NCBI GenBank assembly: GCA_038245295.1
Contig: JBBRSP010000016.1
Coordinates: forward strand, 32,001 to 96,000
Reading direction: 5' to 3'
DNA from: Candidatus Binatia bacterium
GTDB lineage: Bacteria; Desulfobacterota; Binatia; HRBIN30
DNA: 64,000 bases
Within the stretch, counting starts at the first letter, position 1. Each line of letters opens with the position of its first letter. Position numbers and translations under genes: made by a program. The notes below the pieces were generated by a model. It ran no database searches, was not told the origin of the DNA, and saw only the letters and a program-made list of their open reading frames with translations. Positions 19,976 through 48,188 of this stretch are shown in pieces.

Positions 19976-19999
19976 GAGTGCCCCGGAACGAGGTTACCC

Positions 20000-20290
20000 A
20001 TGGAGAATGGACACATCAGCCCCGATCGCCCCGCGGTGCTCGCCAAAGTTCGCCACGCGATCGCCGAGGTGCTGGCTGACAACCGCGTCGAGGTGAAGGT
20101 CGCCGATCACCTGGTTGACGACCTTGGCCTCGACTCAACCAGCATCGCCAGCCTGACGATCGCTCTCGAGGACGAGTTCGATGAAGTCTTGCTCCTCAAC
20201 GATTGGATCGCCGAGGCGCATAGCCCGAGTGATCTCACTGTCGATTCGCTGGTCGACTATCTGATGGGTTTGCTAGCGGAGAGTGATTGA
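20000..20290 (+). CDS. Acyl carrier protein
   Basis: Acidic 96 aa; DDLGLDSTSIASLTIALEDEF phosphopantetheine Ser motif. Confidence 0.9.
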   Translation: MENGHISPDRPAVLAKVRHAIAEVLADNRVEVKVADHLVDDLGLDSTSIASLTIALEDEFDEVLLLNDWIAEAHSPSDLTVDSLVDYLMGLLAESD

Positions 20291-26725: not shown

Positions 26726-26933
26726 TGCAACCCGCGAGGATGGCAGGTTACAACGCCAGCGACGGCAACGGACGCAGTCCCGCTCGGTTCAATGTCGCGT
26801 ACGCGGCCAAGGCAGAGGGCCTGAGGAACAATTCCTTGCAATCCAAAACATCGCCAGTATACAACCAGCCGAATGTGGGCGACCGATGTGTGTACGTTGG
26901 AATTCCGCCCGAGGAAAGGTCGCGCAAGTCAAC

Positions 26934-27743: not shown

Positions 27744-27758
27744 CGATTGGTACGAGTC

Positions 27759-30376: not shown

Positions 30377-30448
30377 CGCAGCGTCAACCTTTCCGGGCAG
30401 AGACTGTCGAGCCTTCCGCAAACCTAGGCAGGCAGTACCGCGCGTAGT

Positions 30449-31369
30449 ATGGGGCCACTGGAGCGACTTACGTTGAATGCCATCGACTTGTCCGTCGTAA
30501 CACCCGTTTACAACAACGCCGCGACGCTCGACGAGCTGCTCGACCGCATCATCAAGGTGGTTGAGCCGATTACCGCTGATTTCGAAATCATCCTGGTCGA
30601 CGACGGCTCGCGCGATGAGAGCTTGTCGATTCTACGACGACGCGCTGCCGCCGACCCACGGATTCGACCACTGTCGCTGGTACGCAACTTCGGCAGCCAG
30701 GCCGCCGCCTGCGCCGGGTTGGACCATGTGCGCGGACGGCGCATGGTTTCGATCGACGCCGACCTGGAGAATTGTCCGGAGGACATCCCGGCGTTACTCG
30801 AGCCGCTCGACCGCGGCTACGATCTAGTGTGTGGCTATCGTGAAACACGCGACGCCCCCTGGCTTCGACGCAAGCTCCCTTCCTTGATCATGAACGCCTA
30901 CATCCGATACCAGCTTGGCACCCGCGTACGAGACCTGGGCTGCGGGATGCGGGCCATGCACTCGTGGGTCATCCGTGATCTCGAGTCCGAAGGTGAAAAC
31001 CGCCGACTGCTGACACCGATCATTCTACGCCGCGTTCGTAAGGTCGCGGAAGTTCCGATTCGCCCCGGCATCCAACGTACCTCGAGCGCCCACTCCTTCC
31101 TCACTCTGCTCGGCATGGCCATGGATTACTACTTGCTCTCGGCGCGGCGCCCATTCCTGATCAGCGGCCTCACTTCTGTTCTCGTCGTGGGGGTGGGAAG
31201 CACGCTGCTGCTCTTTGGTCCGAGATTGGCGGGGCTCGTATTGTTCGCGTCGGGGTGGCTTGGCGCCCTGATGTCTCTTCTCGGCGAATACCTGCAGCGC
31301 AGCTACCAACTGGCTCAACGCGTGCCCTTCTACAAACTCAGGCAGCCGGACGAACCAGGCAATCCCTGA
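30449..31369 (+). CDS. GT2 ArnC/GtrB-like polyprenol-phosphate glycosyltransferase
   Basis: LSVVTPVYN, VDDGSRD, RNFGSQAA..AG, IDADLEN.PEDIP, DLGCGMRA, C-terminal TMs ending LGEYL. Confidence 0.9.
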   Translation: MGPLERLTLNAIDLSVVTPVYNNAATLDELLDRIIKVVEPITADFEIILVDDGSRDESLSILRRRAAADPRIRPLSLVRNFGSQAAACAGLDHVRGRRMVSIDADLENCPEDIPALLEPLDRGYDLVCGYRETRDAPWLRRKLPSLIMNAYIRYQLGTRVRDLGCGMRAMHSWVIRDLESEGENRRLLTPIILRRVRKVAEVPIRPGIQRTSSAHSFLTLLGMAMDYYLLSARRPFLISGLTSVLVVGVGSTLLLFGPRLAGLVLFASGWLGALMSLLGEYLQRSYQLAQRVPFYKLRQPDEPGNP

Positions 31370-31430
31370 TCCTCCGCTACGGACTAGATTCGGCGACAGC
31401 GGCACCCGATGGCACGCGATGGTTCGCGCA

Positions 31431-33113
31431 TCATTTCCAGCCTTCAACGAGCAGCAACGGCAGATTCTCCCAGGCGTTGATCGGTCCAACATCCGGAAGG
31501 GGCACCTTCAGGCGGTCTCGGCCGTGGGCGGCGATCAGGCTACCGAACTGCAGTTCCCAGTTTTGGAGGTAGATGCCGGCGGACACGCGGCCAATCTCTC
31601 GCGGCAGCGGGTCCAGCGGCTGGCCCGCCACCGGTACTTCCGGGACTCCGACGATCCACACCTTCCCCCCACGCCGAAGAGTAGCCTCCACACGTGCCAG
31701 GTCGGGCTCGACAGCCGCCTCTCCCGCCTTCATCTTCTCCGCCACCAGATGATGTCGATGAAACTTGTGCTCTTCAAAATCCGGGATCGTGATCCACGCA
31801 GCTCGTCCACGATAGTAGCGCTGGAAGGTGATCCCACAGTACCAGGGGAAGACCACGATAAGATCATCGGGCCGCGCGCTCACGTTCAGCTCGGCGGCAA
31901 TCACATCAAGGTTGGTAAGGCGCACGTTCAGCGTCTCCCAAACGGCCGGTATTGCCATCAGCAAACCTAGAACCACCAACCCGACGCGGCCGTGTTCCCC
32001 CCAAGGTATGCGTTGGACCAAGGAGCGAACGCCGATCTCGCAAGCCAGTGCACTCACGATGATCACCGATAGGTAGTGCCAATACTGCGTCGGTATACGC
32101 AGCTGCCCATAGATCGCGAACGTGACGACGAAGCCAAGCGACCACGACAGCAGCGTGTACAGCAAGCGATCGAGCTCTTTTTCGGTCGCGGGAGAATAGA
32201 GACCAACAACAAATCCGGCGACGGCAATGGTGGCCGCGATCGCCCAGGCGACGCTCAAACCCAGGGCGCCGGGGCCCAACGAATGCCCGAACACCTGCAA
32301 CAGCCAACCATAGCTCCAGTAGTGCGCCTGCTCGATCGGAGCGGCCGACGCGAAGGCACGCAGCGTCGGCACATTTATGCCGAACAACAACACGGACGTG
32401 ATCGTACCCAGGGCAATCAGCATCCGGAGAACCGGCCAGTCACGTCGACGTAGACAGACGACCGCCGCGGCAACCCCGATTGCCGCGAACAAGACGCAGT
32501 TCGCGAAGGAGACTTGCGTCGCCACCAGCGCCGCCAATTGGGCAACCAGGAAGCGGCGCCGATCAGGCCGCTCGAGCAACGCCCACGTCGCTCCGAACGA
32601 CCAGGCGATGCCGAGCGCCGCGATTCCGTAACCGCGCACCTCGTCGCCATAGAGGACGATCGATGGGCTGAGACCACACAGCAGCAGCGAAACCAGAGGC
32701 GGCCCGATCCCCAGGCGCCAGCCGGTCCACCAGAGCACCCCAATCGTCATCAACCCAATGAGCAACCCGAATCGCCGCAGACCGGCGTCGGTGTCGCCGA
32801 GTCCGGCATCGGTCCAAAGACGAAGGAGCGCCGCCCAACCGAGCGGAAACGAGTCGAGGCCCAGATTGGCCACAACCTCCGTGAAGGTGGGCATCTGCAC
32901 CAGGTTGACGCTGTTGACCTCATCGCGCCAAAGACCGCCGACATGCCGATGACTGTGGATGTGCAACGCGACCAGCGCCAGCGTCATCAGGATACCGGCG
33001 GCCAACGCAAGGCGGGCGTCGAGACTACGCTGCACCGGGTTCTCGTCTGGCTGAGTTGGCAGCGCGGACCCGCCGATCCGAGAAAGTTGGCGGCGGCACC
33101 AAAGCCCCGTCAA
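31431..33113 (-). CDS. GT-C (ArnT/PMT-like) integral membrane glycosyltransferase
   Basis: GGLWRDE after the first TM, EVRGY motif, about 11 TMs, periplasmic C-terminal domain. Confidence 0.75.
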   Translation of the reverse strand: MTGLWCRRQLSRIGGSALPTQPDENPVQRSLDARLALAAGILMTLALVALHIHSHRHVGGLWRDEVNSVNLVQMPTFTEVVANLGLDSFPLGWAALLRLWTDAGLGDTDAGLRRFGLLIGLMTIGVLWWTGWRLGIGPPLVSLLLCGLSPSIVLYGDEVRGYGIAALGIAWSFGATWALLERPDRRRFLVAQLAALVATQVSFANCVLFAAIGVAAAVVCLRRRDWPVLRMLIALGTITSVLLFGINVPTLRAFASAAPIEQAHYWSYGWLLQVFGHSLGPGALGLSVAWAIAATIAVAGFVVGLYSPATEKELDRLLYTLLSWSLGFVVTFAIYGQLRIPTQYWHYLSVIIVSALACEIGVRSLVQRIPWGEHGRVGLVVLGLLMAIPAVWETLNVRLTNLDVIAAELNVSARPDDLIVVFPWYCGITFQRYYRGRAAWITIPDFEEHKFHRHHLVAEKMKAGEAAVEPDLARVEATLRRGGKVWIVGVPEVPVAGQPLDPLPREIGRVSAGIYLQNWELQFGSLIAAHGRDRLKVPLPDVGPINAWENLPLLLVEGWK

Positions 33114-33223
33114 AATGATTCATGCCAGACGCCGTCGGGGCTCAGCTCCGAAAAACTGTCGGCACGGGATGAGAGACATAGCCGCCGGTTCTTGCACGAA
33201 TCACCCTACCATCGCAATTTCTT

Positions 33224-33325
33224 GGTAGTGTCTCAATTTGGGATCCACACCCACCGATGGGTTCTAATCGGAGCGATGGGATCCACCACCCGCCAGCCGC
33301 CAACAGGTCAAACTGAGACACCACC
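33224..33325. mobile_element. 102-bp MITE with 17-bp terminal inverted repeats and 9-bp target-site duplication
   Basis: Left TIR ggtagtgtctcaatttg (33224-33240), right TIR caaactgagacaccacc (33309-33325); caatttctt flanks both sides (33215-33223, 33326-33334). Confidence 0.85.
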
Positions 33326-33420
33326 CAATTTCTTGGCGAGTTCCCTGCTCGGCGCCTAAAAACCTAGGCATATGCCTGGGCGCATAGTATTGGGAGGATC
33401 TAGTTCGCAGGAAAGGGCCC

Positions 33421-35457
33421 ATGAATCGTCCGATCTCGATCTTCTTGGGGGACATGCTTCACCCCAGCAATCAGAACAAAACATTTCCCTATGCGGGCGG
33501 ATGCGTCGGCGCCTACGTGGCCGAGGCGCTTGGTGATCGTGTCGTAGTTGAAGTGTTCCGTTCCCCGGAAGACATGGATGCCGCCTTCCAGCGTTGCCAA
33601 CCCGACATCATCGGCTTCAGCAACTACCTATGGACCCTCGAGCTTACCTACGAAGTCATCCGTCGCCTCAAGGCAAAGATGCCAAACGTCCCCGTCATCA
33701 TGGGCGGCCCGAATTACCCAACCGACGCGGCGGATCAGCGGGCGTTTCTGACGCGCTACTCTCTGGTCGATTTCTACGTGGTGAAGGAGGGTGAGGCGCC
33801 GTTCCTGGCGCTCATCGAGCAGCTTCTGGAGCTCAGGCTCGACGGCGCCGTATTCAAGGAGCAGCGCCGTACAATTCCCGCCGTCCACTATCTTATCAAC
33901 GAGGATTTCGTCGCTCCGCCACCGGCGCCACGGCAGCGCGACCTCGACGCCTTTCCTTCGGCGTATTTGAGTGGTCTGCTCGACAAGTTTTTCACGCGCC
34001 ACGACCTCACGCCATTGATCCAAACCAAACGTGGTTGTCCGTTTCAGTGCACGTTCTGCGTCGAGGGCGAGGACTACTACACCAAGGTCGGTTCGGTGAC
34101 CACGACGCGTTTTCGCGCCGAGTTGGAATACATCGCCAGCCGAATGGCTAACGGCTCGCCGTTGCTGCAGATCGCCGATTCGAATTTCGGCATGTTCGAA
34201 CACGACCTCGAAGTATGCGACGTCATCGCCGAGGTGCGTGACACGTACGGCTGGCCACAAACCATCGAGGTATCAACCGGGAAAAATCGCAAGGAACGCG
34301 TCCTCGAGGCGGTACGCCGCACCAAAGGCGCCATGCGGTTTGGTCCGGCGCTGCAAACCACCGATCGCCAAACCCTGCAGAATATCAAACGCTCCAACAT
34401 TTCCGAAACCGTCCTGATCGAGATGGCGAGCGCGGCAAAAGATTCCGACCAGCGATCCTATACGGAACTGATCCTCAATTTGCCGGGCGATACGATCGCC
34501 TCGCACCTGACTTCGATTCGCGCCGCGATGGAAGCCGGGATGCAACGGATCAAAATGTATCCCCTGATGCTGCTCCCCGGCACGGAGATGGCCTCCGAGG
34601 AGTCGCGCCGCGAATTCGGCATTGAGACACGCTTCCGTGTCTTGCCGACGTGTTACGGCAACTACACGTTCCTTGGCGAGACGTTTCCAAGCGTCGAGAT
34701 CGCCGAGTTGGTCGTCGCCACCAATTCCATGAACTTCGCCGACTATCTGCACTGCAAGCGCTTCGAGCTATCGGTGGAGATCTTCTACAACGACATCTAC
34801 CTCGAAGAGATCCACGGCCTGGCACGCGCGCTCAATCTACCGATGTTCACCTTCGTCGAGCGCTGCCATGCCCAGTTCGACAGCTTCCCGGCGGAGCTCA
34901 AAGAGGTCTACAGCGCCCTCGAGCACGGCGTCTGCGACAATCTCTTCGACTCGCGCGACGCTTGCCTCGAGCATTTCCGCGATCCGGACCATCTGCTTCG
35001 CTATGCGCGCGAGGAATACAAGAACAGCCTCGGCGCTTTGAAGGCGATCGCCCTGGTGGAGCATATCGAGCCGCTGTTGGTGATCGCCCGCCGGGCCTTC
35101 TGGGAGTGTATGGAAGCAGCAGGACTGGGGCAGCCGTCCCTCGCCGAGTACCTCGATGAGCTCATCGAATACAGCCGCCTGCGACGCCGCCAGATCCTCG
35201 ACATCGAAGTCGAGCCGGAAGGAACGTTCCAGTTTGCCTTCGACCAGATCGGTGAACGCGCGTTCCGCGTCGATCCGCGCGACTTCCGCCTGCGGCAGCC
35301 GCAACGCATGCGCTTCTGGCACGACGAGGCGCAAGCCCGCGACTTGCGGCGACTGCGCAGCGACGTATCCAATCCGATCCTACGGGCCCGCTCATTCATC
35401 TACCCGGCCACCGATCCGGGCGTGAACCCGTATCTGCGTCACGCACGTTTCTGCTGA
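33421..35457 (+). CDS. B12-binding-domain radical SAM protein
   Basis: PDIIGFSNYLW, MGGPN, EGE, TKRGCPFQCTFC, ADSNFG, LPGDT, LLPGTEM. Confidence 0.9.
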   Translation: MNRPISIFLGDMLHPSNQNKTFPYAGGCVGAYVAEALGDRVVVEVFRSPEDMDAAFQRCQPDIIGFSNYLWTLELTYEVIRRLKAKMPNVPVIMGGPNYPTDAADQRAFLTRYSLVDFYVVKEGEAPFLALIEQLLELRLDGAVFKEQRRTIPAVHYLINEDFVAPPPAPRQRDLDAFPSAYLSGLLDKFFTRHDLTPLIQTKRGCPFQCTFCVEGEDYYTKVGSVTTTRFRAELEYIASRMANGSPLLQIADSNFGMFEHDLEVCDVIAEVRDTYGWPQTIEVSTGKNRKERVLEAVRRTKGAMRFGPALQTTDRQTLQNIKRSNISETVLIEMASAAKDSDQRSYTELILNLPGDTIASHLTSIRAAMEAGMQRIKMYPLMLLPGTEMASEESRREFGIETRFRVLPTCYGNYTFLGETFPSVEIAELVVATNSMNFADYLHCKRFELSVEIFYNDIYLEEIHGLARALNLPMFTFVERCHAQFDSFPAELKEVYSALEHGVCDNLFDSRDACLEHFRDPDHLLRYAREEYKNSLGALKAIALVEHIEPLLVIARRAFWECMEAAGLGQPSLAEYLDELIEYSRLRRRQILDIEVEPEGTFQFAFDQIGERAFRVDPRDFRLRQPQRMRFWHDEAQARDLRRLRSDVSNPILRARSFIYPATDPGVNPYLRHARFC

Positions 35458-36458
35458 TCGAGACGCATGTGGAAGCTTGCCGCCGAACGCAAGCACTGGT
35501 GCCCGAGCTTGCCGAACACGTTGATGCTCTGAATGGTCGACGTCTGGGTTTCATTCTCCAGATAACTGGCGCCGAGCGGGCGCGTCGCCGCACACTCCTT
35601 CTGTAGGGCGGTGAACAAGCCGCGATAGCCCGGCAACGTTCCGCCGATGCCGCGACCGACGATGCGAACGCCAGCCGCCTCCGACAAATCGGGCATGATC
35701 ATCATCGTGTGGAAAGCAACGATCTCCGCGCCGTCGCGCACGACCAGAAGCACGTCGGCCCATTCACCGGTCAGCGCCTTCTGCGTCCACACTTGATAGA
35801 TTCCTAGAGCCCGCTCATGCGGCACGCCGCGATCAAACACATATGGGCCGCGATCAAAGGCCGTGGCCGTCCAGGCGTATAGCCGTTGCCAGGACGAGGG
35901 ATCGATATCGGCAATCGCAGGCTTCTCGATTAACTCGATGCGCAGCCCGCTCGGCAAATCATGCGGTGCACGTTGCCCCGTGAGGGCCTGCATCCAGGAG
36001 ATCTTGGTCCCGACGTAAAACGCTCCGAGTTGCTGCAGCGCCCACCAGGCAGTGCGATCGTGCGTCGAAGTGACCGCCGAGAAATGTTGAAACCGGCGCT
36101 CACGAAGAATTTCGCAAGCCGCTCCGTAGAGAGCTTGCAAGGGTTCCAGCCTTGCTTCTTCGTCGGCACTCGCCAATGGCGGCTCGATCTTGGCCATCGA
36201 CAGGCCGAAGTGTTGTGACTCGAAGTGCCGCCGACCGATTTGCAGGGCCGCCAACGCTTGCCCGCCGGCATCACGCGCCACCAGTACACTCTGCGCGCTG
36301 CCGGCATCACGCCAAGCCCGCCGATGCACTGTCAGGGCGCCCCCATCGCGGACCATGGGCGCAAAGTTCATGTAGGTTAGATAGGGCTCCCGCGGCAGCA
36401 ATGCGTCCAGTGCTTCCTCCAGGAGAGCGCCTTGCTCCAGCGCCACGCGTATCGGCAT
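35439..36458 (-). CDS. Tandem GNAT-like acetyltransferase (WecD/RffC-like)
   Basis: FESQHFG..., Y..W..., PGYRGLFTAL, ETQTSTIQSINVFGKLG resembling the WecD TQxxN motif; lies downstream of an aminotransferase. Confidence 0.6.
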   Translation of the reverse strand: MPIRVALEQGALLEEALDALLPREPYLTYMNFAPMVRDGGALTVHRRAWRDAGSAQSVLVARDAGGQALAALQIGRRHFESQHFGLSMAKIEPPLASADEEARLEPLQALYGAACEILRERRFQHFSAVTSTHDRTAWWALQQLGAFYVGTKISWMQALTGQRAPHDLPSGLRIELIEKPAIADIDPSSWQRLYAWTATAFDRGPYVFDRGVPHERALGIYQVWTQKALTGEWADVLLVVRDGAEIVAFHTMMIMPDLSEAAGVRIVGRGIGGTLPGYRGLFTALQKECAATRPLGASYLENETQTSTIQSINVFGKLGHQCLRSAASFHMRLDQQKRA

Positions 36459-36599
36459 CGCGGCGAGCTATACATTCGCGCCAGACACGGGGGAAGAGGC
36501 AGCGGACGATCGATTCGCTCGCCCGCTTTTCTCACCGAGTCGCTTAACGACAGCACCGAGTGTGCATCGGATCAGGGCTCGCGCAGCGATGACACAGGG

Positions 36600-37799
36600 C
36601 TAGCGCCGGTAATACAGAAGAATCCGCCGCAGCGCGGCGATGACGTCGTCGTGGTCGGCGTCCGACATCGCCGGATACAGTGGCAGGGATAGGATGCGCG
36701 ACGACGCATCGTTCGCCACCGGCGTGTGGGCGCGCGTTTCTCCCTCGACATCCTGGAAGTAGCGTTGCGTCGTCAAGGAGCGGAAATGCACGCCCACCCC
36801 GATATTGTCGGCAAGCAGCGCTTCGAGAAGCTGATCGCGGGACAAACGCAGGGCGCCGAGATCGAGCAGCACAGGGAAGAGATGTGCCGCGGTCTGCGAC
36901 TCGGCCGGACCGGACACGCAAGTCAGCTCCGGACGATCGGCAAACGCCGCGCGATACCGCGCATCGAGATCACGCCGGCGCGCCAGGAAGGCGGGGAGTT
37001 TCTTCAATTGCTCGATGCCGAGGGCGGCGCCGATGTCGCTCATGTTGTACTTCCACCCGGCAGACACCGCCTCCCAGTGACGATAGCTCTTGCCGATGCG
37101 CTGACTGGCATCGACGTCGATGCCCTGCAGCCGCTCGCGCCGCATGCGTTCGACGAACTCGGGGTGGCTTGTTGTGATCATGCCACCCTCCCCCGTCGTG
37201 ATGTTCTTGGTGGCGTAGAAACTGAAGACTGCCGCGTCGCCGAGCGCACCGGCGGCAACGCCGTGGTAGGTCGCGCCCAGAGCGTGCGCCGCGTCTTCGA
37301 TCAACCGCGCTCCCGCCTGAGCGGCGATCTGTCGCAGGGCGTTCATCTCGGAAGGCCATCCGGCGAACTGTACCGGCAGGATGACTCGCGTACGCGGCGT
37401 GATCGCCTCTTGCACGCGTGCCGGGTCGAGCGTCAGTTGGTCGGGTAACACGTCGGCGAATACCGGGCGGGCGGCACAGTGCAAGATGGCGTTCGCCGTG
37501 GCGGGAAACGTAATCGGCGACGTGATGACTTCGTCGCCAGGCCCCACCCCGGCGGCACGTAACGCCAGATGCAACCCGGCTGTGCAGGACGACACGGCGA
37601 TGGCGTGCGGCACACCAACAAACGCCGCGAATTCGCGTTCGAACCTGTCACTGCGCGGGCCGGTCCCGAGCCAACCGGAGCGCAACACCTCGACGACCGC
37701 GCGCTCCTCTTCTTCGCCAAGCTGCGGTCGGGCGAAAGCCAGCAGCGACTCTCGCACCGGCGCGCCGCCTGCCATTGCCGGGATGTCGTTCCGACCCAT
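36600..37799 (-). CDS. DegT/ArnB/PseC-family sugar aminotransferase
   Basis: SGWLGTGP, VSSCTAGLHLAL, IEDAAHALG, FSFYATKNITTGEGGM, LSLPLYP. Confidence 0.95.
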   Translation of the reverse strand: MGRNDIPAMAGGAPVRESLLAFARPQLGEEEERAVVEVLRSGWLGTGPRSDRFEREFAAFVGVPHAIAVSSCTAGLHLALRAAGVGPGDEVITSPITFPATANAILHCAARPVFADVLPDQLTLDPARVQEAITPRTRVILPVQFAGWPSEMNALRQIAAQAGARLIEDAAHALGATYHGVAAGALGDAAVFSFYATKNITTGEGGMITTSHPEFVERMRRERLQGIDVDASQRIGKSYRHWEAVSAGWKYNMSDIGAALGIEQLKKLPAFLARRRDLDARYRAAFADRPELTCVSGPAESQTAAHLFPVLLDLGALRLSRDQLLEALLADNIGVGVHFRSLTTQRYFQDVEGETRAHTPVANDASSRILSLPLYPAMSDADHDDVIAALRRILLYYRR

Positions 37800-37829
37800 C
37801 GATTCGATCTCCTTGTTGCAGCCGTGCGG

Positions 37830-38639
37830 TCAGGCGCGCCAGAAGCGCATTTCGAGGGAAATGCGGGTGAGATTGTGGTTGAAGTTCCGCGCCCCGCCAT
37901 GGATGAGATACGGCGAGAATACCAGGCAGTGATCGTCCGGCACGTCGGGCCGCTCGAGCGCCACCGGGCGGCGCGCGCCGGTTACGGCGGGAACCGTGTA
38001 GACACGTGCATCGGCGGTCGCCCCACCCAGCGTGCGCTCGATGTCCGACTCCGGCCAGTGATGACTGGCAGCGACAAGTGGCAGAGACGACAGAGCATTC
38101 GAGCCAAACAAGGGAGCGTAGATGTTGATCGCGTCGCGCAAGCGATCGATCCAGACGTCACGGTGCGGCGGATTGTTGTCGGTCGAACCCGGTCGCACGA
38201 TGCGAAAAGCACCGTACGCGGCCCCCAGGTGCGGTGAGAATGCCGTGACCCGCATGCCACACACATCGCTGACGGCATCTTCAATCTCTGCCACAGGGAC
38301 CGGGCCGCCGGCTGCTTCAAAGCCGCGCCGCACCCCTTCGACAAACGCATGGTGCAGCGCCGGTTCGAGCGCGGCGATCTCGTGATAGCGGGTCCATTCG
38401 ACCGGCGCGCCGACATACCCGAGTGCGCGCAATTGCTGTTCAAGAAACGCAGCGACGTCACGGCGCATCTTGGCGCGCGAATCTGCCGTCAGGAAAGGTT
38501 CGACGGTGTATCCGATCGCCGACCAGGGCTGCCCCGCCGTGAGATCATCGTCGTTGTCGAGGAGCACCACCTCGGCGCCGTATCCTCTTGGTCCGTCGCC
38601 GATATCCGGCAACTCTTCACCATTGAGGATCCAACGCAT
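37830..38639 (-). CDS. PhyH-like Fe(II)/2OG dioxygenase
   Basis: NPPHRD (HxD), LPLVAASH, LIHGGARN..TRISLEMR. Confidence 0.75.
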   Translation of the reverse strand: MRWILNGEELPDIGDGPRGYGAEVVLLDNDDDLTAGQPWSAIGYTVEPFLTADSRAKMRRDVAAFLEQQLRALGYVGAPVEWTRYHEIAALEPALHHAFVEGVRRGFEAAGGPVPVAEIEDAVSDVCGMRVTAFSPHLGAAYGAFRIVRPGSTDNNPPHRDVWIDRLRDAINIYAPLFGSNALSSLPLVAASHHWPESDIERTLGGATADARVYTVPAVTGARRPVALERPDVPDDHCLVFSPYLIHGGARNFNHNLTRISLEMRFWRA

Positions 38640-38688
38640 GAGAACGCAGTACCACAGCGTTCAATTGCCCAGCAACGGGCGACGCCGC

Positions 38689-39696
38689 TCAACCATAGGA
38701 GCGCAGCCCCTCGATGGCCGCAGTCAGCGGGCGTTTGAAAAGCATATTGAACTCGAGCATCGGACCAACCGTGCAAACGGTGCACGGCGTCTCACGATTC
38801 CAGGTGCGGCGCCAATCGTCGGCCAACAGGTCCACCGACACCGTCGTACCCTTGGTGTACGCGCAGGGGTATGCGTGGCCCAGCGGGTCGACATAGATGT
38901 AGCCGTGTCCGGCGGGACAACGCTCGTTCGGATCCTTGTACGCCGAAACCGAGAAGTCTTCCCAACGCGATAGATACTCGAGGTAAGGCGTTGAGCTGAC
39001 AATCGGCCGCCCTTTGCGTTTCTCCTCGAGGAGATGTTGCCAAAAGGCACGGAACTGTTGGTTCGAAATCGTCGTGTCGATGGCGCCGCGAACGATTTCC
39101 GTATCCACGCATTGCGGCTGGAAGTGCATCCGGAAGCCGATGGTCTCGGCTTGTTGCAGCAGGTACTCGGCTTGCGCCAGACTGTGCTGGGTGACGACAC
39201 AGATGGCGATGACGGGTTTGCCGCTGCGCAGCAACTGGGTGATGCTCTCCATGACCCCCTCGTACGCATGAGCGCCGCGCGCCGCGACATGGGCCGCCGC
39301 ATCGCCATCCAGGCTGGTGTACACGAGGTCTGCCTGCGCCAGACGCTCGGGATGCCGAGCAAACAGAGTGAGATTCGAGTTGACGCTCACGTAGAACTTT
39401 TGGCGCTTGGCCAGATCGATGATTTCACCCAGGTCGGCGCGCAGCAGAGGTTCGCCTCCCGCGATACCTAGGCGACGGATGCCCATTTCCCTCAATCGCT
39501 CGAAGAGAACGGCGATGCGATCAAGTCCGAGGTTCTTTGGATCGATGAAGGGACAGTTGCAGTACTCGCAGCGCAGATTGCAGCGGTTCGTAACGACGAA
39601 GGTGGCGGAAAACGGCCGTGGTGCGCCATCAACCATGTACGAAAGTAGACTCGTCGCGTACGAGTAGCCGACCGCGAGTTTCTCACCCAACAGCAC
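38689..39696 (-). CDS. Radical SAM protein with twitch/SPASM-type auxiliary cluster
   Basis: TNRCNLRCEYC, GGEPLLR, SLDG, C-terminal CPAG..YVDPLG..YPC...CTVC. Confidence 0.9.
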   Translation of the reverse strand: MLLGEKLAVGYSYATSLLSYMVDGAPRPFSATFVVTNRCNLRCEYCNCPFIDPKNLGLDRIAVLFERLREMGIRRLGIAGGEPLLRADLGEIIDLAKRQKFYVSVNSNLTLFARHPERLAQADLVYTSLDGDAAAHVAARGAHAYEGVMESITQLLRSGKPVIAICVVTQHSLAQAEYLLQQAETIGFRMHFQPQCVDTEIVRGAIDTTISNQQFRAFWQHLLEEKRKGRPIVSSTPYLEYLSRWEDFSVSAYKDPNERCPAGHGYIYVDPLGHAYPCAYTKGTTVSVDLLADDWRRTWNRETPCTVCTVGPMLEFNMLFKRPLTAAIEGLRSYG

Positions 39697-40552
39697 TGGT
39701 AGTCCCCAGCAGGTAGAGCCACAGGACGCCGAAGTACGCCTTCGTCAGCAGCCATCCCGTGCGCGCATTGCTGAACGAGAAGTAAATCACCAACGGGACA
39801 AATGCCGTGGTCGCCCACGCCGAACCGACGGGCTCGCGCAGGGCCATGTACAGAAAGAGCGTCAACGCCGCGAGTACAGTCGCGGACAGCCCAGCGGATC
39901 GTACGGCGGTGGTGGTAATCAAATTCGCAGCATCCGCGGCACGATCGCCAAGCGTCTGGTAGAGATGGCAAACCGCCGTCATCAATCCCACGAGAAGAAG
40001 CTCCGATGACGAGGAGCTCACAATCGCCGCATAGACAGCACCCCAGAGGCCGCACCAGACAACATCCATGACGGCGACACCCTTGAGCTTCGTCGAGTAG
40101 AGAATATTGACGAGCATGACCCCGGCAACCGCTGCCGCGGCACGAAGGTCGAGGGTGACGTAAGCGGCGACGACCGTCAGGAGCTTCAAGGTCAGGACTA
40201 CCACTCCGGACAGCCAGCGATGCGCCAAATAGATCGAGACAACCTCTTGATCCTTCTTCGGATTGTTCGAATCCGTCGGGGCGTCGTACAGATCATTGAA
40301 GGCGTACATGAGAGCAATCGCCAACAGCGAAATGAGTATCTGTGTGATCTCTCGCGATGCGATCAATCCACCCTTCAGAATCAGCGAAACATTGATCGCG
40401 AATAAAGCCCCTTCGCCCCCACGCGCGCGATGCAACGTCGACGCAGCACCCGCCCACAACAACTCGCTCACGGCAGTCGCGCTCGTCGACAAACTCACCC
40501 GTCCAGGCACGGTCGTGCTGTCGTCGGCTGGAATCGTTTCCGAAGGGGGCAT
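39683..40552 (-). CDS. UbiA-family prenyltransferase
   Basis: YAFNDLYDAPTD..NPKK, YS.KLK..AVMDV, second Asp motif GDRAAD; multiple TMs. Confidence 0.82.
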   Translation of the reverse strand: MPPSETIPADDSTTVPGRVSLSTSATAVSELLWAGAASTLHRARGGEGALFAINVSLILKGGLIASREITQILISLLAIALMYAFNDLYDAPTDSNNPKKDQEVVSIYLAHRWLSGVVVLTLKLLTVVAAYVTLDLRAAAAVAGVMLVNILYSTKLKGVAVMDVVWCGLWGAVYAAIVSSSSSELLLVGLMTAVCHLYQTLGDRAADAANLITTTAVRSAGLSATVLAALTLFLYMALREPVGSAWATTAFVPLVIYFSFSNARTGWLLTKAYFGVLWLYLLGTTSAVG

Positions 40553-40668
40553 TTGAGGGTCAGTAGCACGCGCTGTAAGCGTCAGGCAACGAAGATCGGG
40601 GCAGCGCTGCCGCGCCTGCCTGAGCCGTGATTGACAAACCCCAGACCTCGTTCCAATGCTCCGGACGA

Positions 40669-41508
40669 ATGCTGCAATCGTCTGAAGCGCTGCCTTTGCC
40701 CGTCACGCCTGCCGATCTCCACGTAGAGGAGTTGGAACGTCTCCCCGCCCCCGACAAAGACGAGTTCGAGCGTGATTTCTTGCGCCGCCGTCGGCCGGCC
40801 GTTTTCACTGGCATGACCGATGGCTGGGCTCCGCCGGCGCAATGGACGTTGGACTCTATGGCAAGGAAGTTTGGGGCGGCGCGTGTTGTCGCCGCGGTCC
40901 TCAGTCAGGGGACGCTGTTCGATGATCCGGCCACGGGAGTTGTCTTTCGCCACATCTCCCTGGGTGAATTCATTGCGTCCCTGGCCGATGCCAAGACGGC
41001 CAGCCACTACGTCATGGCCCCAACCTGGAACTTCCCGCCCAGTTTTCAAAATGATTTTCGGGTTCCGCCCTATTGCGTCGGCGCGCCGCACTACCGGGCC
41101 AAGGTCTGGGTCGGCAAAGCTGGGACCGTCACGCCGGTGCACTATGACATCCCGCACAACCTGCACGTTCACCTGACCGGCCGTAAACGTTGGCTCTTGT
41201 TCCCACCGGGTCGCGGCAGGATGTATCCGCGCGGGCTGCTTTCGGGCATGCCGAACTTCTCGGAAGTGAACCCGGAGAATCCCGACTACGATCGCCATCC
41301 GCGTCTGCGCGAAGTTACGGCGCTCGGAGCCACACTCGAGGCCGGTGAAACGTTGTTCATCCCGCACGGCTGGTGGCACCACGCGCGCTCGCTCGACGAT
41401 ATCGTGTCGATGAATTTCTGGTGGGGCGGCCAGGTGGTGCAGCTGGCGTCACTGGCGTCAACCACCTTCAAGCGTCTGCGACGCATTCGCCGCGACGAGT
41501 GGGGCTAA
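40669..41508 (+). CDS. JmjC/cupin-8 Fe/2OG hydroxylase (start could be 40627)
   Basis: WVGKAGTVTPVHYD..HN, GRKRWLLFPP, LEAGETLFIPHGWWH, SMNFWW. Confidence 0.92.
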   Translation: MLQSSEALPLPVTPADLHVEELERLPAPDKDEFERDFLRRRRPAVFTGMTDGWAPPAQWTLDSMARKFGAARVVAAVLSQGTLFDDPATGVVFRHISLGEFIASLADAKTASHYVMAPTWNFPPSFQNDFRVPPYCVGAPHYRAKVWVGKAGTVTPVHYDIPHNLHVHLTGRKRWLLFPPGRGRMYPRGLLSGMPNFSEVNPENPDYDRHPRLREVTALGATLEAGETLFIPHGWWHHARSLDDIVSMNFWWGGQVVQLASLASTTFKRLRRIRRDEWG

Positions 41509-42806: not shown

Positions 42807-42828
42807 CATGGTCCGAGAAGGAGTGCCA

Positions 42829-43569
42829 ATGACTGCTGCCGGAGAGACCTCGACTATACAAACAACCGAAGAACGGGAGTCCGCCGGAAAGCTGATGGGA
42901 CTCGTCGTTTTTGGCGAGATGGTCGCCGCACGCACTTATAAACTGATGGCTGATCTGCGACCCGAGTTCGCAACGATTCTGCGCAAGTTCGCCTCGATGG
43001 AAGGCCAGCATGCCACCTGGTTCCGCGACACCAGCCAGCGCAACGGCATCGAGCTCGACAAGGATTTTGCCGATAAAGAGCTCGGTTACCTGATCGATCA
43101 AGTCGACAACTACTCGGCCCAGAAAGACTTCGACGCCTTGATGATTGTGCAAGGCTTCATCGTCGAGAGTCTGGCCATCGCCACCTATGAGCCTTTCCTG
43201 GAGATCGCCCCGAAGTACGAGGGTGCCAGTGCCGCGTTCGCGCAGGCGTTGGCCGACGAGCGTTATCACGTCGACTGGGTGACTCGTTACCTGCGGCTGC
43301 GCTTCTTCGACAACCACGACGAGTTCATGTCGCTGACCGACCGCGTCAATGTCCAAGGCATCGATTGCGTCGGCGGCACACTCATGAGCATCGCCAACGG
43401 CTTGAAAAGCGTTGGCCTTTCGGCGGCCGATTGCACGGGCGCGATGATGGACGAATACACGAGCCTCCTCGAGAATGTCGGCGTCGAGTCGCGACGCGCC
43501 ACCAAGGCCGTAGTCAGCTTGTTCGTACCGTTGGCGCAAAAGTATCGCCGCCGCCCAGAAGCGCACTGA
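42829..43569 (+). CDS. Ferritin-like diiron protein homologous to cyanobacterial aldehyde-deformylating oxygenase (ADO)
   Basis: GE30, ME58xxH61, Q..IVE113SLAIATY, DE144xxH147; ligand spacing 28/3/52/31/3 versus 28/3/52/29/3 recalled for ADO. Confidence 0.82.
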   Translation: MTAAGETSTIQTTEERESAGKLMGLVVFGEMVAARTYKLMADLRPEFATILRKFASMEGQHATWFRDTSQRNGIELDKDFADKELGYLIDQVDNYSAQKDFDALMIVQGFIVESLAIATYEPFLEIAPKYEGASAAFAQALADERYHVDWVTRYLRLRFFDNHDEFMSLTDRVNVQGIDCVGGTLMSIANGLKSVGLSAADCTGAMMDEYTSLLENVGVESRRATKAVVSLFVPLAQKYRRRPEAH

Positions 43570-43598
43570 GTAAACCGGAAGCGAAAGGCGCTTTCCCC

Positions 43599-44225
43599 AT
43601 GGAGGACTCACTCGAAGCACTCTTCTGGGCGATTCTGCGGCGCTTCGAGAGTGCCGCGATCCGCCAGTATGACCGTGTTGCGCCAGAGCTGGCCGAGGCC
43701 GCCAAGCGTGCCTATGTCGCCCGGCTCCAAGACTGTGGCGCCACCGATGCGGTGCTCGATGCCAGCGAGTTGGCCGCACCGGTGCGAGACCTTCTAGCCA
43801 CCGCCGCCAATAATGATCTGGTGACGACGTTGATCGTCCAGGGCTTATTTCTCGAGCATCTTGGTCGAGCCATCTATCGCGTCGCCGGCGAGCAAGATTC
43901 CATGAGCCCGGAAAGCCGCGCCCTCGCCGCCGATGGCATCGTCGCCAGTGATGCCGTGGTGGCGCGCTGCACGGAATTGCTGGCCCGCACGATTCCCAAC
44001 GGAGAAGATTTGTTCCACCGCTTTGTCGACGCCTCGCGCGACCTGGTCGAGCGGCTCGACACACTGGGCGAGGCGGTCGACCATGTGTTCGGCGAACGCT
44101 TCCACCTGCACTTCCGCGACATCATGGGCGACTTCACCGCCGACCTGCTGCCGGCCTGCGTCGAGCTCGGCATGACACGCCGAAAAGTCGTGGCGCATTT
44201 GACCGGCGCACTCATGGGGATCTGA
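43599..44225 (+). CDS. Divergent ADO-like paralog lacking both ExxH metal motifs
   Basis: FESAAIRQY, LVTTLIVQGLFLEHLGRAIY and GDFTADLLPACVELGMTRR align by eye to ADO helices; no ExxH. Confidence 0.65.
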   Translation: MEDSLEALFWAILRRFESAAIRQYDRVAPELAEAAKRAYVARLQDCGATDAVLDASELAAPVRDLLATAANNDLVTTLIVQGLFLEHLGRAIYRVAGEQDSMSPESRALAADGIVASDAVVARCTELLARTIPNGEDLFHRFVDASRDLVERLDTLGEAVDHVFGERFHLHFRDIMGDFTADLLPACVELGMTRRKVVAHLTGALMGI

Positions 44226-44233
44226 CCGACTCG

Positions 44234-45403
44234 ATGCGCGTCGCCAGCGGAGAAGCGGTTTGCATCACCGGCGCCAGCGGCTACGTCGGCCGTCTCGTCG
44301 CCGCGGCGTTGCTGGCATACGAGGACGTCGATCTCGTCATCCCGGTGCGCGAGAAGTACAGCGCCGCCGATATTGCCACTGCGGTTGCCAAGGAGTGCGA
44401 GACCCTCGGCACACCGGCTTCGCCCGAGATGCTGCGTCGCCTGCACGTGGTGGCGCTACCCCCGACAAGCGAAATGGCATCACTCGGGCCGCTGCTGCGC
44501 CAGCATCGGGTTCGCCAGATCATCCACTGTGCCGGCTCCCTCAGTTACTTCAGCGCCAGCAAGCTGAAGGAAGGCAACCTCGATCTGACGCGCGCCCTGC
44601 TCGATGTCGCCAAGGCCAACGGCGTCCATCGATTCCTCTACATGTCGACCGCCTTCAGCGCCGGCTTCGTTGCCGGACAGGTGCGGGAAGCCCTGCACCA
44701 CGATCCGCCCGAGGACCCAACCGAATATACGCGTTCGAAGCGCCAGACCGAACACATGGTCGCCGACAGCGGGCTCGATTACGTCATCCTGCGGCCGTCG
44801 ATCGTCATCGGCCACAGCCGCAGCGGCCTCTACTCGGGGCGACCGTATGGCCTCTACCAACTGTGGAACGCCGGCGAACGGTTCATGAGTGACCGCTACA
44901 CCCCCGTCTTGCACGCCATCGCCCCGCGCGTTCCGCTGCAGGTCGTGCATCAAGACGCCGTGCAGGCGGCGGTATTGGCCGCCTACCGCGAGATTCCAAG
45001 CGGCGGTGTGTTGCACATTGTGTCGCGCGAAGCCTCGCTACCGACGGTGCGCGAGATGTGGGATTTGTGGTTCGGCGCCTGGGCGCGTCCACAAGAGATG
45101 CACTACTACGACACGCTCGAAGAAGTGCCCATGCAGGAGCTCGACCGCCAACAGCGCTGGCTCGTCGAGTTCGCCGCCGCCAATATCGAAATCTCGACCC
45201 ATCCCTGGCATTTTGCGGCGCATCGCCTGGACGCCCTGCGCCGGGACGGCCTCGCCTTTACCGATGCCAGCATCGAAACCGTGGCCAACTCGCAGCGCGT
45301 CTTCATGCAGAACTCGCCGCGCATTCGCCGCTTCCTCGAAGCGCATGCCGATAAGATTCCGGCAGCGTCGGCCACCGCGCCGCATTCCGCCGGCTCGGAG
45401 TGA
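44234..45403 (+). CDS. Extended SDR, fatty acyl-CoA/thioester reductase (NAD_binding_4) type
   Basis: TGASGYVG, IHCAG, YMSTAF, YTRSK, LRPSIVIG. Confidence 0.82.
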   Translation: MRVASGEAVCITGASGYVGRLVAAALLAYEDVDLVIPVREKYSAADIATAVAKECETLGTPASPEMLRRLHVVALPPTSEMASLGPLLRQHRVRQIIHCAGSLSYFSASKLKEGNLDLTRALLDVAKANGVHRFLYMSTAFSAGFVAGQVREALHHDPPEDPTEYTRSKRQTEHMVADSGLDYVILRPSIVIGHSRSGLYSGRPYGLYQLWNAGERFMSDRYTPVLHAIAPRVPLQVVHQDAVQAAVLAAYREIPSGGVLHIVSREASLPTVREMWDLWFGAWARPQEMHYYDTLEEVPMQELDRQQRWLVEFAAANIEISTHPWHFAAHRLDALRRDGLAFTDASIETVANSQRVFMQNSPRIRRFLEAHADKIPAASATAPHSAGSE

Positions 45404-45522: not shown

Positions 45523-46578
45523 ATGGATCGGTCCAACTACACCCATCTCGACGAAGCGTTCGACATGCTGACGGACTGCGGTCCCGACATGAAGAATGGC
45601 TTTACAAATCACGGCCCGATGGCAGCCGAAGCCCTTTGTGCGCTTGGCCGCGCCGATGCCGTGCTCGATTGGGTGGAGAATTACCGTCGCGGCGGCCTGC
45701 CCTGGGCGCCGTCGCGCCAAACCATCGATCAGAACAACTGGCGGGAGGCGTTGGCCCGGGAAGACCGCATCAGCGATTGGCGCGCCTTCTTTCACGCAGA
45801 GATGCAGGGAGCGACGTGGCAGGAGGTCCTGAACCGTTGGGCCGGCCAACTCGCACCGGGCATCTGCGCCGCCGCAGCCCATGGCGTCATCCGCGTCGGC
45901 CACGCGGCGCGTGCCCTCGGCGCCGAGGAAACAGCGCTGCGGCGCGCCGAGCTCGCCGACGCACTGGCCTCGTGGGCCTACGCGTATCAAGAGTTGCCGA
46001 CGCAAACACCGATTTCGCCGGGCACGCTCACCCCGCATCAGGCCTTCGGCCGGGTACCGCTGATGCCACCGGAACAGCGGCGCTTCAGTGGCACGATTGT
46101 GTCCTCTCTCTATGCTTTGAATGACTTCCCCGCGTTTGCACCGGTGATTGGATTGATCGATGTCCGCGGCGAACCCCAGCGCCTGGTCGGCCAGATGACC
46201 GAGGTCTTTGCCCGGGTCTATCTAGAAAACGCCAAGGACGTTCTGACGTCGATCGTTTTCATCCATGGCGTCACCGGCATCGACGCACTCGGCAACATGC
46301 TTCCGTACCTCGACGACGCAACGGCGCGCACGGCGCTAGGGTATGCGTGGCAAGCGAGTTGCGGACTTTACGCGGCGTTCGGCACACACCCCCTGGGCGG
46401 AAGCGAAATCGAAGCGCCCCGCGAAAACGACGAAACGCTCGTCGAGATGGCTGTCGGCCACGGCGACGAACACGTCATCAAGTTTACCGAAGCGTGTTTG
46501 CACCAGCATTCGCTCAACCCTTCACCCGCCTACCTTGCCGCCGCTCGCCACGTCATCGACGCACTACCGCGCTCATAA
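45523..46578 (+). CDS. Questin oxidase-like (DUF4243) protein
   Basis: NHGPMAAEAL, AAAHGVIRVGHA, HGVTG, GDEHVIKFTEAC. Confidence 0.82.
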   Translation: MDRSNYTHLDEAFDMLTDCGPDMKNGFTNHGPMAAEALCALGRADAVLDWVENYRRGGLPWAPSRQTIDQNNWREALAREDRISDWRAFFHAEMQGATWQEVLNRWAGQLAPGICAAAAHGVIRVGHAARALGAEETALRRAELADALASWAYAYQELPTQTPISPGTLTPHQAFGRVPLMPPEQRRFSGTIVSSLYALNDFPAFAPVIGLIDVRGEPQRLVGQMTEVFARVYLENAKDVLTSIVFIHGVTGIDALGNMLPYLDDATARTALGYAWQASCGLYAAFGTHPLGGSEIEAPRENDETLVEMAVGHGDEHVIKFTEACLHQHSLNPSPAYLAAARHVIDALPRS

Positions 46579-46647
46579 GACGGTTCGAGAACCGCCGCTT
46601 GCGTTAGGCTAAACCCGTATGCGAGAAACCGCGACGGTGGGTGCAGA

Positions 46648-47394
46648 GTGAATAAAGAAGCTCAGCGTCGAGTCGAACAGGATCGTCTGTTCGCCGAAGA
46701 GCGTCGAACGATCCAGGATTTCAACTTCGGTGCCGATACCGCCGCCGTCTTCGACGATATGCTCGGCCGCTCGGTGCCGTTTTACGACGAAATCCAGCGC
46801 ATGATTGCCGAGATGGTCGACGATCTCGGTGTCGACGGCACCAACGTCTACGACCTCGGCTGCTCGACGTGCGCCACGTTCCGTCAGCTGGCCGGCGTCA
46901 GCAAGGACGTCAACTTCATCGGCATCGACGACTCACGCGCCATGCTGGATCGCGCCGAAAAGGAACTGGCGGCCGCCGGCTTCAACCGACGCTACGAGTT
47001 GCGCGAACAGGACCTCCACAAAGGTCTGCAGATCGAGAACGCCTCGGTCGTCATCTTGAATCTCACCTTGCAGTTTGTGCGTCCGTTGTATCGCGAGCGT
47101 TTGCTGAAGACGATTTTCGACGGCCTGCAGCATCAAGGCGCTTTGATCATGGTCGAAAAGGTGCTGGCGAAGGGAACATTGGAGAGTCGCCTGTTCATCA
47201 AGTACTACCACGCGATGAAACGGCGCAACGGCTACTCGCTCACCGAGATCAACCAGAAGCGCGAGGCGCTCGAGAATGTCTTGATTCCCTACCGCCTCGA
47301 GGAAAACGAGCTGCTGCTGCGGGAGACCGGCTTTACGGGCGTCGAGATCTTCTTCAAGTGGTACAACTTCTGCGGCCTGGTGGCGCTGAAATGA
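46648..47394 (+). CDS. cmoA: Carboxy-S-adenosyl-L-methionine synthase CmoA family
   Basis: DFNF....A.VFDDMLGRSVPFY, YDLGCS, LNLTLQF, EINQKREALENVL, KWYNF. Confidence 0.88.
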   Translation: MNKEAQRRVEQDRLFAEERRTIQDFNFGADTAAVFDDMLGRSVPFYDEIQRMIAEMVDDLGVDGTNVYDLGCSTCATFRQLAGVSKDVNFIGIDDSRAMLDRAEKELAAAGFNRRYELREQDLHKGLQIENASVVILNLTLQFVRPLYRERLLKTIFDGLQHQGALIMVEKVLAKGTLESRLFIKYYHAMKRRNGYSLTEINQKREALENVLIPYRLEENELLLRETGFTGVEIFFKWYNFCGLVALK

Positions 47395-48188
47395 CCGCCG
47401 TACCGCCACTCAGCGAGGCGGCGTCGAGTCCGGGCGCGAAGTTATTCTCGGCACTCGGCCGTTTTGTCTTCCGCTACCGCGATTACCTGGCGCCGGTCAT
47501 CGCGATTCTCATACTGCTGCTGACCGAGCCGTGGCCATTTCTTGGCAGCCCCTATGCCGATCGCTGGCTCGGATTCTTCGGCTTCGTGGTGGCGTTGCTC
47601 GGGCAGGCGATCCGCATGACGGTCATCGGCTACGCCTACATCGTGCGTGGCGGCGTCAACAAGGAGATTGCGGCGCCGCGCCTGGTCGCGGAAGGCTTCT
47701 ACGCCCACAGCCGCAATCCGATGTATCTCGGAAACTTCCTGCTCATCATCGGTTTGGCGCTGGTCTATAACTCGCCGGCCGTCTACCTGGTCGGCCTGCC
47801 TCTGTGTATCATCGGCCTGGTTTCGATCGTGCGGGCCGAAGAGGAATTTCTGCTCGGCCGCTTCGGTGCCGAGTACGCCGAGTATTGCAGACGGGTACCG
47901 CGTTTCATTCCCAACATGCGGGGCTTGTATGCGACCTTGTCGGGCATGCAGTTCGACTGGCGTCGCGTGCTGCGCAAGGAGTACGGTACGACGCTGGCAT
48001 GGACCAGCGCGATGACGATCTTCCTCGCCGTCGAGCAAGTCCATTGGGACGGCTTGTCGGAAAGCGACGACGAGCTGACCGCTCTGGGCGTCTCCTGGGC
48101 CGTCGTCTTCGCCGCCTACCTGATCGTGCGCTGGCTCAAAAAAAGTCGCCGCCTGGAAAGTGCGCCGGCCGCATCCGCCGTCCGGTAG
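47391..48188 (+). CDS. ICMT/PEMT-family integral membrane methyltransferase
   Basis: LVAEGFYAHSRNPMYLG, EEEFL..RFG.EY.EY.RRVPRFIP; ATGA overlap with cmoA. Confidence 0.87.
   Translation: MTAVPPLSEAASSPGAKLFSALGRFVFRYRDYLAPVIAILILLLTEPWPFLGSPYADRWLGFFGFVVALLGQAIRMTVIGYAYIVRGGVNKEIAAPRLVAEGFYAHSRNPMYLGNFLLIIGLALVYNSPAVYLVGLPLCIIGLVSIVRAEEEFLLGRFGAEYAEYCRRVPRFIPNMRGLYATLSGMQFDWRRVLRKEYGTTLAWTSAMTIFLAVEQVHWDGLSESDDELTALGVSWAVVFAAYLIVRWLKKSRRLESAPAASAVR

Follow-up and report, generated by a model that had tools for sequence, protein, structure and literature searches.

Whether the cyanobacterial route to alkanes, in which an acyl-ACP reductase (AAR; ACP, acyl carrier protein) provides the fatty aldehyde consumed by the aldehyde-deformylating oxygenase (ADO), has a counterpart in bacteria without AAR is the question raised by three adjacent genes in a 64,000-nucleotide stretch of Candidatus Binatia bacterium (assembly GCA_038245295.1, contig JBBRSP010000016.1, positions 32,001 to 96,000), referred to below as the window. 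These genes, here named A, B and R (Table 1), encode a diiron protein, a metal-less protein of the same predicted fold and a putative reductase, respectively. An earlier, sequence-only reading of the window had given their order, overall span and gaps of 29 bp (A-B) and 8 bp (B-R), all of which are borne out by the open reading frames (ORFs), which lie on the plus strand. Sequence comparisons point to a real, conserved and uncharacterised variant of an AAR-ADO-like gene set. Judged from sequences, structural models and analogy together, there is a roughly even chance (about 0.5) that the trio acts as an AAR-independent reductive-deformylation module, which would convert an acyl thioester via an aldehyde to a Cn-1 hydrocarbon. 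Direct evidence covers the homology, the conserved ligands, the linkage of the three genes, the selection acting on B and the lack of AAR.

The comparison with cyanobacteria was made against ADO (PF11266/TIGR04059; PDB 4RC5, 5UX2 and 5UWZ), AAR (TIGR04058) and the AAR-ADO complex 6JZU. Protein A matches the Pfam family Ald_deCOase with 66.6 bits over residues 16-226 (gathering cut-off 28), and its best 20 PDB sequence matches are all aldehyde decarbonylases. Its predicted model (pLDDT 87.8) has the eight-helix ADO fold and superposes on ADO 5UX2 with a Z score of 32.1 and a root-mean-square deviation of 1.5 A over 218 residues, followed by 5UWZ with 29.1 and the next entry with 20.3. Since the fold match to ADO lies far above the next one and agrees with the Ald_deCOase and PDB sequence matches, A is, by profile and predicted fold, a divergent member of the ADO subfamily; by its equivalog score (given below) it is not an ADO equivalog. 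Other diiron folds score lower (R2lox 19.1, R2 17.9, methane monooxygenase 17.0, PaaAC 16.2), and a Rubrerythrin profile reaches 28.9 bits on residues 28-88 only; MiaE and AurF are not among the 50 fold matches listed for A, and AurF scores 9.8 against B. An origin of A in another ferritin-like family, which the sequence-only reading had named as a way in which it could be wrong, was hence ruled out for PaaA/C, R2lox and rubrerythrin-like proteins by the Z gap (20.3 or less versus 32.1).

An alignment of 32 A, 32 B, 30 canonical cyanobacterial ADO and three olefin-synthase-linked ADO-like proteins, from which duplicates and one split A gene (locus L030) were left out, places A residues E30, E58, H61, E113, E144 and H147 on the ADO diiron ligands E32, E60, H63, E115, E144 and H147. 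The spacing is 28/3/52/31/3 as against 28/3/52/29/3, in agreement with the earlier claim of six ADO-type ligands at nearly cyanobacterial distances. All six are invariant in the 32 orthologues, and among 119 further homologues five are present in every protein and E30 in 118. As in ADO, the second-shell residues Y37, Q108 and Y120 (ADO Y39, Q110 and Y122) are retained in 32/32, and the equivalent of ADO position 143 is D or E throughout. In SeADO, 17 residues are described as lining the substrate channel, with G31 and A118 being the small residues beside the aldehyde (PMC5007808). Every A protein has the ADO residue at four of these positions, G31, F67, A118 and Y122 (G31 and A118 corresponding to G29 and A116 of A, 32/32), and the remaining ones are mostly hydrophobic and often smaller (F87L, F117L, V28 mostly A).

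Gene B had been read as a dead ADO-like paralog, of which the kinship stands and the decay does not. BLASTP detects no similarity between A and B, a Pfam scan of B gives no match, and the match between A and B at profile level is weak (E 0.0057, probability 6.5%). The predicted model of B (pLDDT 93.8) has ADOs as its best fold matches (Z 20.6 and 19.5; next 16.4; PaaAC 13.5), on which ground B is taken as a paralog of A, and Ald_deCOase clusters stand at ranks 2-3 among its Atlas neighbours. B keeps E17, Y24, Q81, E86 and Y93 (ADO E32, Y39, Q110, E115 and Y122) in 32/32 proteins. Only two of the six ligands are left, as the segment carrying E60 and H63 is deleted and small or hydrophobic residues occupy the positions of E144 and H147, and B is consequently unable to form the ADO diiron site. 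The ratio of nonsynonymous to synonymous substitution rates (dN/dS) of B is 0.07-0.35 in six of six close pairs, as compared with 0.01-0.17 for A, with dS near saturation in the pair L001/L002. This purifying selection rules out a pseudogene. B is thus a selected metal-less subunit, which, according to the complex model, probably binds A. A search for B in five cyanobacterial genomes whose ADOs are divergent, run without a positive control, gave no match.

The A-B complex was predicted with a score of 0.80, as compared with 0.00 for the best of three controls; of solved complexes, 116 of 157 come up to this mark, as do 2 of 215 mismatched pairs, although these numbers are only rough with the alignments used. 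The prediction runs share at least 97% of their contacts, with a partner pLDDT of at least 89, and the predicted interface is pseudo-symmetric, comprising residues 198-208 and 221-240 of A and 172-185 and 194-208 of B. In cyanobacterial ADO, helix 7 is reported to dock AAR through E196, E200 and D201, and the substrate entrance to lie between helices 7 and 8 with W178 as its gate (PMC7089970). B is predicted to sit on this same helix 7/8 face of A. In A, E196 is replaced by A200 (Ala in 31/32), E200 by G204 (27 Gly, 5 Ala), position 205 (D201) is variable and the W178 gate is Gly in 32/32, and hence the AAR-docking surface is lost exactly where B is predicted to bind.

The reductase R carries the motifs G13xxG16xxG19, R39, S138/T139 and Y165xxxK169, with G13, G16, G19, R39, S138, Y165 and K169 invariant in 28 of 28 members. 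Its Pfam matches are a near tie between Epimerase (67.9 bits) and NAD_binding_4 (66.6 bits), and a PDB search with the R sequence alone gave one weak epimerase match only. When the family profile was compared with solved structures, MxaA came first (E 5e-18), followed by a polyketide synthase (PKS) R domain, Mtb Nrp and AusA. With these reference R domains of nonribosomal peptide synthetases (NRPS) and PKS (MxaA 4U7W, 8V1X, Mtb Nrp 4DQV, AusA; TIGR01746), which are its best solved-structure matches, R shares the extended short-chain dehydrogenase/reductase (SDR) architecture, the GxxGxxG motif, the Ser/Thr-Tyr-Lys set and the RPS motif. R differs from them in being stand-alone, in matching mainly over the N-terminal 200-280 residues and in having a diiron enzyme, not an assembly line, as its partner. 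All 28 members match both TIGR01746 and PRK07201, the window protein (P0003) reaching 63.9 bits against TIGR01746 (cut-off 213.35). A two-domain bacterial fatty acyl reductase (FAR) was ruled out by the length of 389 aa and by a partial match to PRK07201 (a two-domain FAR of about 657 aa), which gave 55.5 bits against a cut-off of 549 over model positions 4-288 only. Of the earlier description as an NAD_binding_4 FAR, the family match is upheld and the FAR type is not, R being closer to NRPS/PKS R domains. The label stand-alone R-domain-type acyl reductase fits better, and its motifs suggest thioester reduction. A second and stronger NAD_binding_4 reductase (196.5 bits) is encoded 12 kb downstream, on the minus strand at 57043-58233, near a DUF1302 gene.

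The lack of AAR claimed earlier is upheld, since no TIGR04058 match was found in the window's genome (96.6% complete), in a search whose Synechococcus control passed the cut-off. OleD, the only ole gene covered by the search, likewise had no match above cut-off in this genome.

The three genes are kept together over a wide range of hosts. A genome collection yielded 34 loci, 31 of them non-cyanobacterial (57-65% identity to A) and three cyanobacterial (24-28%). Among the 32 genome loci scored, being the 31 plus one from a search of the window's class, B accompanies A in 31 and R in 30, the misses (L012 and L025) lying at contig edges, so that the reductase linkage, whose absence would have spoken against the sequence-only reading, is conserved. 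The genes are arranged A-B-R in 25 loci, and in five R precedes the other two. From metagenomes, 82 loci were confirmed and 80 kept, some of which duplicate genome loci or one another; where the contig leaves room, B is present in 61/62 and R in 42/43. Unlike the hosts of AAR-ADO, those of the trio are non-photosynthetic lineages with at least eight phylum-level labels, namely Planctomycetota, Myxococcota, Binatota, Pseudomonadota, Chloroflexota, Armatimonadota, Vulcanimicrobiota and Melainabacteria, and all trio-bearing genomes so labelled are metagenome-assembled. The distribution is patchy, as 6 of 201 genomes of the window's own class have a full-length match (two unpublished genomes, G087 and G177, enter this total and nothing else). 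A quick tree unites the B proteins in one group (support 100) and sets A apart from canonical ADO, three divergent proteins falling within it; several sub-groups recur in both A and B, which is consistent with joint travel. Because this tree is a quick one in which long branches meet, it is not used to place a root, name a donor or order events. The cassette has a GC content of 0.59-0.65, which does not stand out from its flanks, and no match in a plasmid collection; a promoter scan found no sigma-70 site, and predicted terminators were fewer than in shuffled sequence.

Table 1. Features of the trio and of the separate ACP/FAAL operon in the window
Feature	Coordinates	Strand	Basis
Gene A, ADO-subfamily diiron protein, 246 aa	42829-43569	+	ORF plus profile, fold and alignment
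Gene B, metal-less ADO-fold paralog, 208 aa, predicted partner of A	43599-44225	+	fold, alignment, complex model
Gene R, putative stand-alone thioester-reductase (R-domain/FAR-like) extended SDR, 389 aa	44234-45403	+	profiles, motifs
Shine-Dalgarno-like AAGGAG, 5 nt 5' of the gene A ATG	42818-42823	+	sequence; putative function
ACP / enoyl-CoA-hydratase-like / FAAL operon, separate from the trio; real genes	20000-23942	+	profiles
ACP, real gene	20000-20290	+	
FAAL, real gene	about 22089-23942	+	

As a mechanism, R would reduce an acyl thioester (acyl-ACP or acyl-CoA) with NAD(P)H to the fatty aldehyde, as its family and intact motifs suggest. A and B would pair as a pseudo-symmetric heterodimer whose interface is made by helices 7 and 8, the AAR-docking and substrate-entrance face of ADO, with B, which lacks a diiron site but has a conserved polar pocket, acting as a scaffold or as an aldehyde relay or shield in place of the docking role of AAR. 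By analogy with ADO chemistry, the diiron centre of A, using O2 and electrons from host ferredoxin, would then release C1 as formate and yield the Cn-1 alkane or, at loci with a linked desaturase, an alkene. Canonical ADO is described as dependent on host ferredoxin (PMC9743570), and neither a ferredoxin nor a flavin reductase recurs among the scanned neighbours of the trio. The trio would work like AAR-ADO and yet outside that pathway, since the equivalog score (given below) falls short and neither AAR itself nor the AAR-docking residues are present; it shares the adjoining acyl reductase gene, and its reductase is an unrelated R-domain-type SDR, with a metal-less ADO-fold B present nearly always. 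A catalytic diiron subunit paired with a ligand-depleted paralog is also known from PaaA/PaaC and from the alpha and beta chains of methane and toluene monooxygenases. A and B are both nearer to ADO than to PaaAC, and in contrast to those systems the trio encodes no dedicated reductase or ferredoxin and no regulatory subunit. Plant CER1/CER3, a further such pair made up of membrane proteins of another fold, likewise link acyl reduction with the loss of C1. In a tentative extension, to which we give somewhat less than even odds, the trio may represent a third soluble bacterial alkane/alkene pathway, the deepest known ADO branch with its own substrate delivery, in which a stand-alone R-domain reductase feeds a heterodimeric deformylase (an active ADO-like subunit and its pseudo-enzyme twin) with tunnels joined face to face. 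This three-gene unit would then have spread through at least eight phyla of uncultured bacteria from soils, sediments and waters, among them relatives of cyanobacteria that lack photosynthesis.

Several observations weigh against deformylation. The score of A against the TIGR04059 equivalog model is 67.7 bits, below the cut-off of 222.65, and its structural identity to ADOs is 22-24%. A lacks C70, Y21 and R62, the last being replaced by Q60 (Q in 83 and R in 21 of the 119 homologues), and an R62A exchange in SeADO is reported to lower kcat by 91% (PMC5356278). ADO F86 is replaced by an invariant Glu, E84 (119/119 homologues), which may indicate a more polar substrate. R domains can carry reduction on to the alcohol. 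Two loci depart from the pattern, one (L115) having an intact A without B and followed by a kinase, with only 290 nt of upstream sequence, and the other (L030:9998-10729) an A split into two ORFs beside whole B and R, either through a sequencing error or as a broken copy. The A-B score supports binding and may partly mirror likeness to solved ADO-fold pairs. Finally, divergent cyanobacterial ADO-like genes lie directly upstream of large FAAL-PKS genes (L032:9986-19580, L033:159-6378, L034:9938-20136 and L096:8040-17466). The six ligands are complete in those checked (L032-L034), the sulfotransferase/thioesterase end of an olefin synthase is seen in L032 and L034, and AAR was not found in the three olefin-synthase-linked genomes tested. 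As the ADO and olefin-synthase hydrocarbon pathways are described as mutually exclusive (PMC6361979), such an ADO may have another job, and ADO-fold proteins beside an olefin synthase without AAR mean that the ADO fold alone does not fix function. It is the loss of R62, the new E84 and cysteines and these ADO-fold genes that keep our confidence in deformylation from being higher.

The same residues bear on a different outcome, in which the fatty aldehyde or alcohol coming from R is oxidised by the A/B diiron unit to a non-alkane product, for example a chain-shortened n-1 aldehyde or alcohol, a chain bearing a hydroxyl group or a new double bond, or an ether or other membrane-lipid precursor, with B in a structural role like that of PaaC or the methane-monooxygenase beta chain. 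The unlike residues at R62, C70, Y21 and F86 would suit this outcome, as would the conserved family-specific ones, namely invariant E84 and C180 and near-invariant C202 (C180 in 119/119 and C202 in 117/119 homologues), of which the two cysteines belong to helices round the ADO entrance, in probable proximity. G182 is a further invariant residue specific to the family. It also draws on the n-1 aldehydes and alcohols reported among ADO side products (PMC5356278) and on MMPL, LolA-like or MlaE genes, which flank eight loci (L007, L008, L009, L020, L023, L137, L157 and L164) and fit an exported or envelope lipid. However, A matches ADO throughout the first metal shell and in most of the second, the fold gap to other diiron oxygenases exceeds 11 Z, and the constant partner is of an aldehyde-forming reductase type, as deformylation needs. 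We therefore hold such an oxidation to be rather unlikely, and keep deformylation as the preferred reading.

Gene neighbourhoods speak to where the acyl chain might come from. The scan took in 119 proteins, drawn from a pick of 214 around the genome loci with a few added, together with 76 of the 136 at metagenome loci; they are mostly housekeeping proteins, and most loci have no lipid gene beside the trio, which also counts against a lipid pathway of the kind proposed. The informative exceptions are a locus (L010) in which a phosphopantetheinyl transferase (PPTase), an enoyl-reductase-like SDR, two FabA/Z, ACP, FabH and FabF precede A-B-R and FabD follows it, and two loci (L001 and L002) with a similar type II fatty acid synthase (FAS-II) set; in all three the acyl-supply genes are co-oriented with the trio. 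At L027 and L147, R, FAAL-ACP, A, B and a desaturase follow one another in this order and are co-oriented; L131 has the same arrangement minus its 5' end, starting within the upstream FAAL-ACP, and at L023 and L030 a desaturase adjoins the trio. Such acyl-supply genes speak for the preferred reading. As dedicated FAS-II or FAAL-ACP/desaturase contexts they would also suit the release of a specialised acyl chain, be it polyunsaturated, branched, very long or polar, from its own FAS or FAAL-ACP line, with ordinary C16-C18 aldehydes as poor substrates and the facing A/B tunnels accommodating a longer chain, for which C180 or C202 might serve as tether. Channel residues smaller than those of ADO (Leu in place of F87 and F117, mostly Ala in place of V28, Gly in place of W178) and the richness of the window region in tailoring enzymes point the same way. 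Against this, the trio stands alone among housekeeping genes at most loci, no window neighbour recurs with it and A is highly conserved (57-66% identity) across differing contexts, and we regard a specialised chain as improbable. Still less probable is a catabolic or detoxifying role, in which aldehydes would be scavenged or blocked fatty acids shortened by one carbon. The patchy occurrence among soil and sediment heterotrophs and the lack of a constant biosynthetic neighbour would agree with it, but the informative contexts are anabolic (FabH, FabF, FabD, ACP, PPTase, FAAL-ACP) and R comes from a reductive release family. Deformylation of a fatty aldehyde thus remains the reading we prefer.

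Within the window, the sequence-only reading had the aldehyde supplied from a FAAL/ACP-bound chain at 20-24 kb, a link that is possible but unsupported. The P450/ACP/enoyl-CoA hydratase (ECH)/FAAL operon at 18.6-23.9 kb lies about 19 kb from the trio with genes on both strands between, its ACP and ECH genes have no match among 112 related loci, and FAAL-type genes stand beside the trio in three of these (33-36% identity). Compared with the L027 FAAL, the genome gives a single strong match, which lies in this operon (32%). As parts of a larger unit, a flanking zinc-type oxidoreductase, a questin-oxidase-like gene and the P450/ACP/ECH/FAAL operon were rejected, none recurring as an orthologue in the 112 loci.

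No description of the trio was found in the full-text literature searched, which left most subscription journals outside. ADO has been described as confined to photosynthetic cyanobacteria (PMC5699528), and environmental surveys carry ado-type annotations outside them, uncharacterised in the text (PMC13488336; PMC10176705). Some members of the present family already bear the automatic labels 'aldehyde decarbonylase' or 'rubrerythrin', for which reason such surveys may count them without evidence. In a screen of ferritin-like proteins, Mak et al. (2020, Biochemistry; cited in PMC9314684) reportedly observed ADO activity in non-cyanobacterial ones. If the trio deformylates, it would be a non-phototrophic biogenic source of hydrocarbons in soils and sediments with a new reductase partner, and a natural case of a pseudo-enzyme subunit feeding or activating ADO, whose low turnover is said to limit bio-alkane engineering (PMC5356278). 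If it performs other chemistry, it would be a novel reaction on the ADO scaffold. With three small soluble genes, either outcome is testable in one E. coli experiment.

Further observations concern other genes of the window and other loci. At 15954-23942, genes for an SDR, a metallo-beta-lactamase-like protein, a P450, an ACP, an ECH of 601 aa whose C-terminal half carries no annotation, and a FAAL read as a fatty-acyl tailoring operon. A dense tailoring run at 26685-41508, with an Asp/Asn beta-hydroxylase, three radical SAM genes (one B12-binding), a fatty acid hydroxylase and GT2, DegT aminotransferase, UbiA-like and JmjC cupin genes, may be a glycolipid or secondary-metabolite region. On the same strand 3' of the trio, 45523-48188 holds questin-oxidase-like, methyltransferase and PEMT-like genes, the first of which is unmatched in the 112 related loci. 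At two other loci (L001:6449-7345 and L002:6328-7263), the FAS-II operon includes a Pfam-less protein of about 300 aa with an ACP-like serine motif, which resembles that of a small ACP (L010:7458-7706) and may indicate an ACP fusion. One cyanobacterial genome has a second, divergent ADO (L097:6486-8179), which shares its operon with a rubrerythrin-domain gene and has heme oxygenase, radical SAM and phosphoketolase genes nearby. Further divergent ADO-like proteins, three (P0150, P0157 and P0158) at 30-44% identity to A and two (P0182 and P0183) on a separate branch, suggest that more uncharacterised ADO subfamilies exist.

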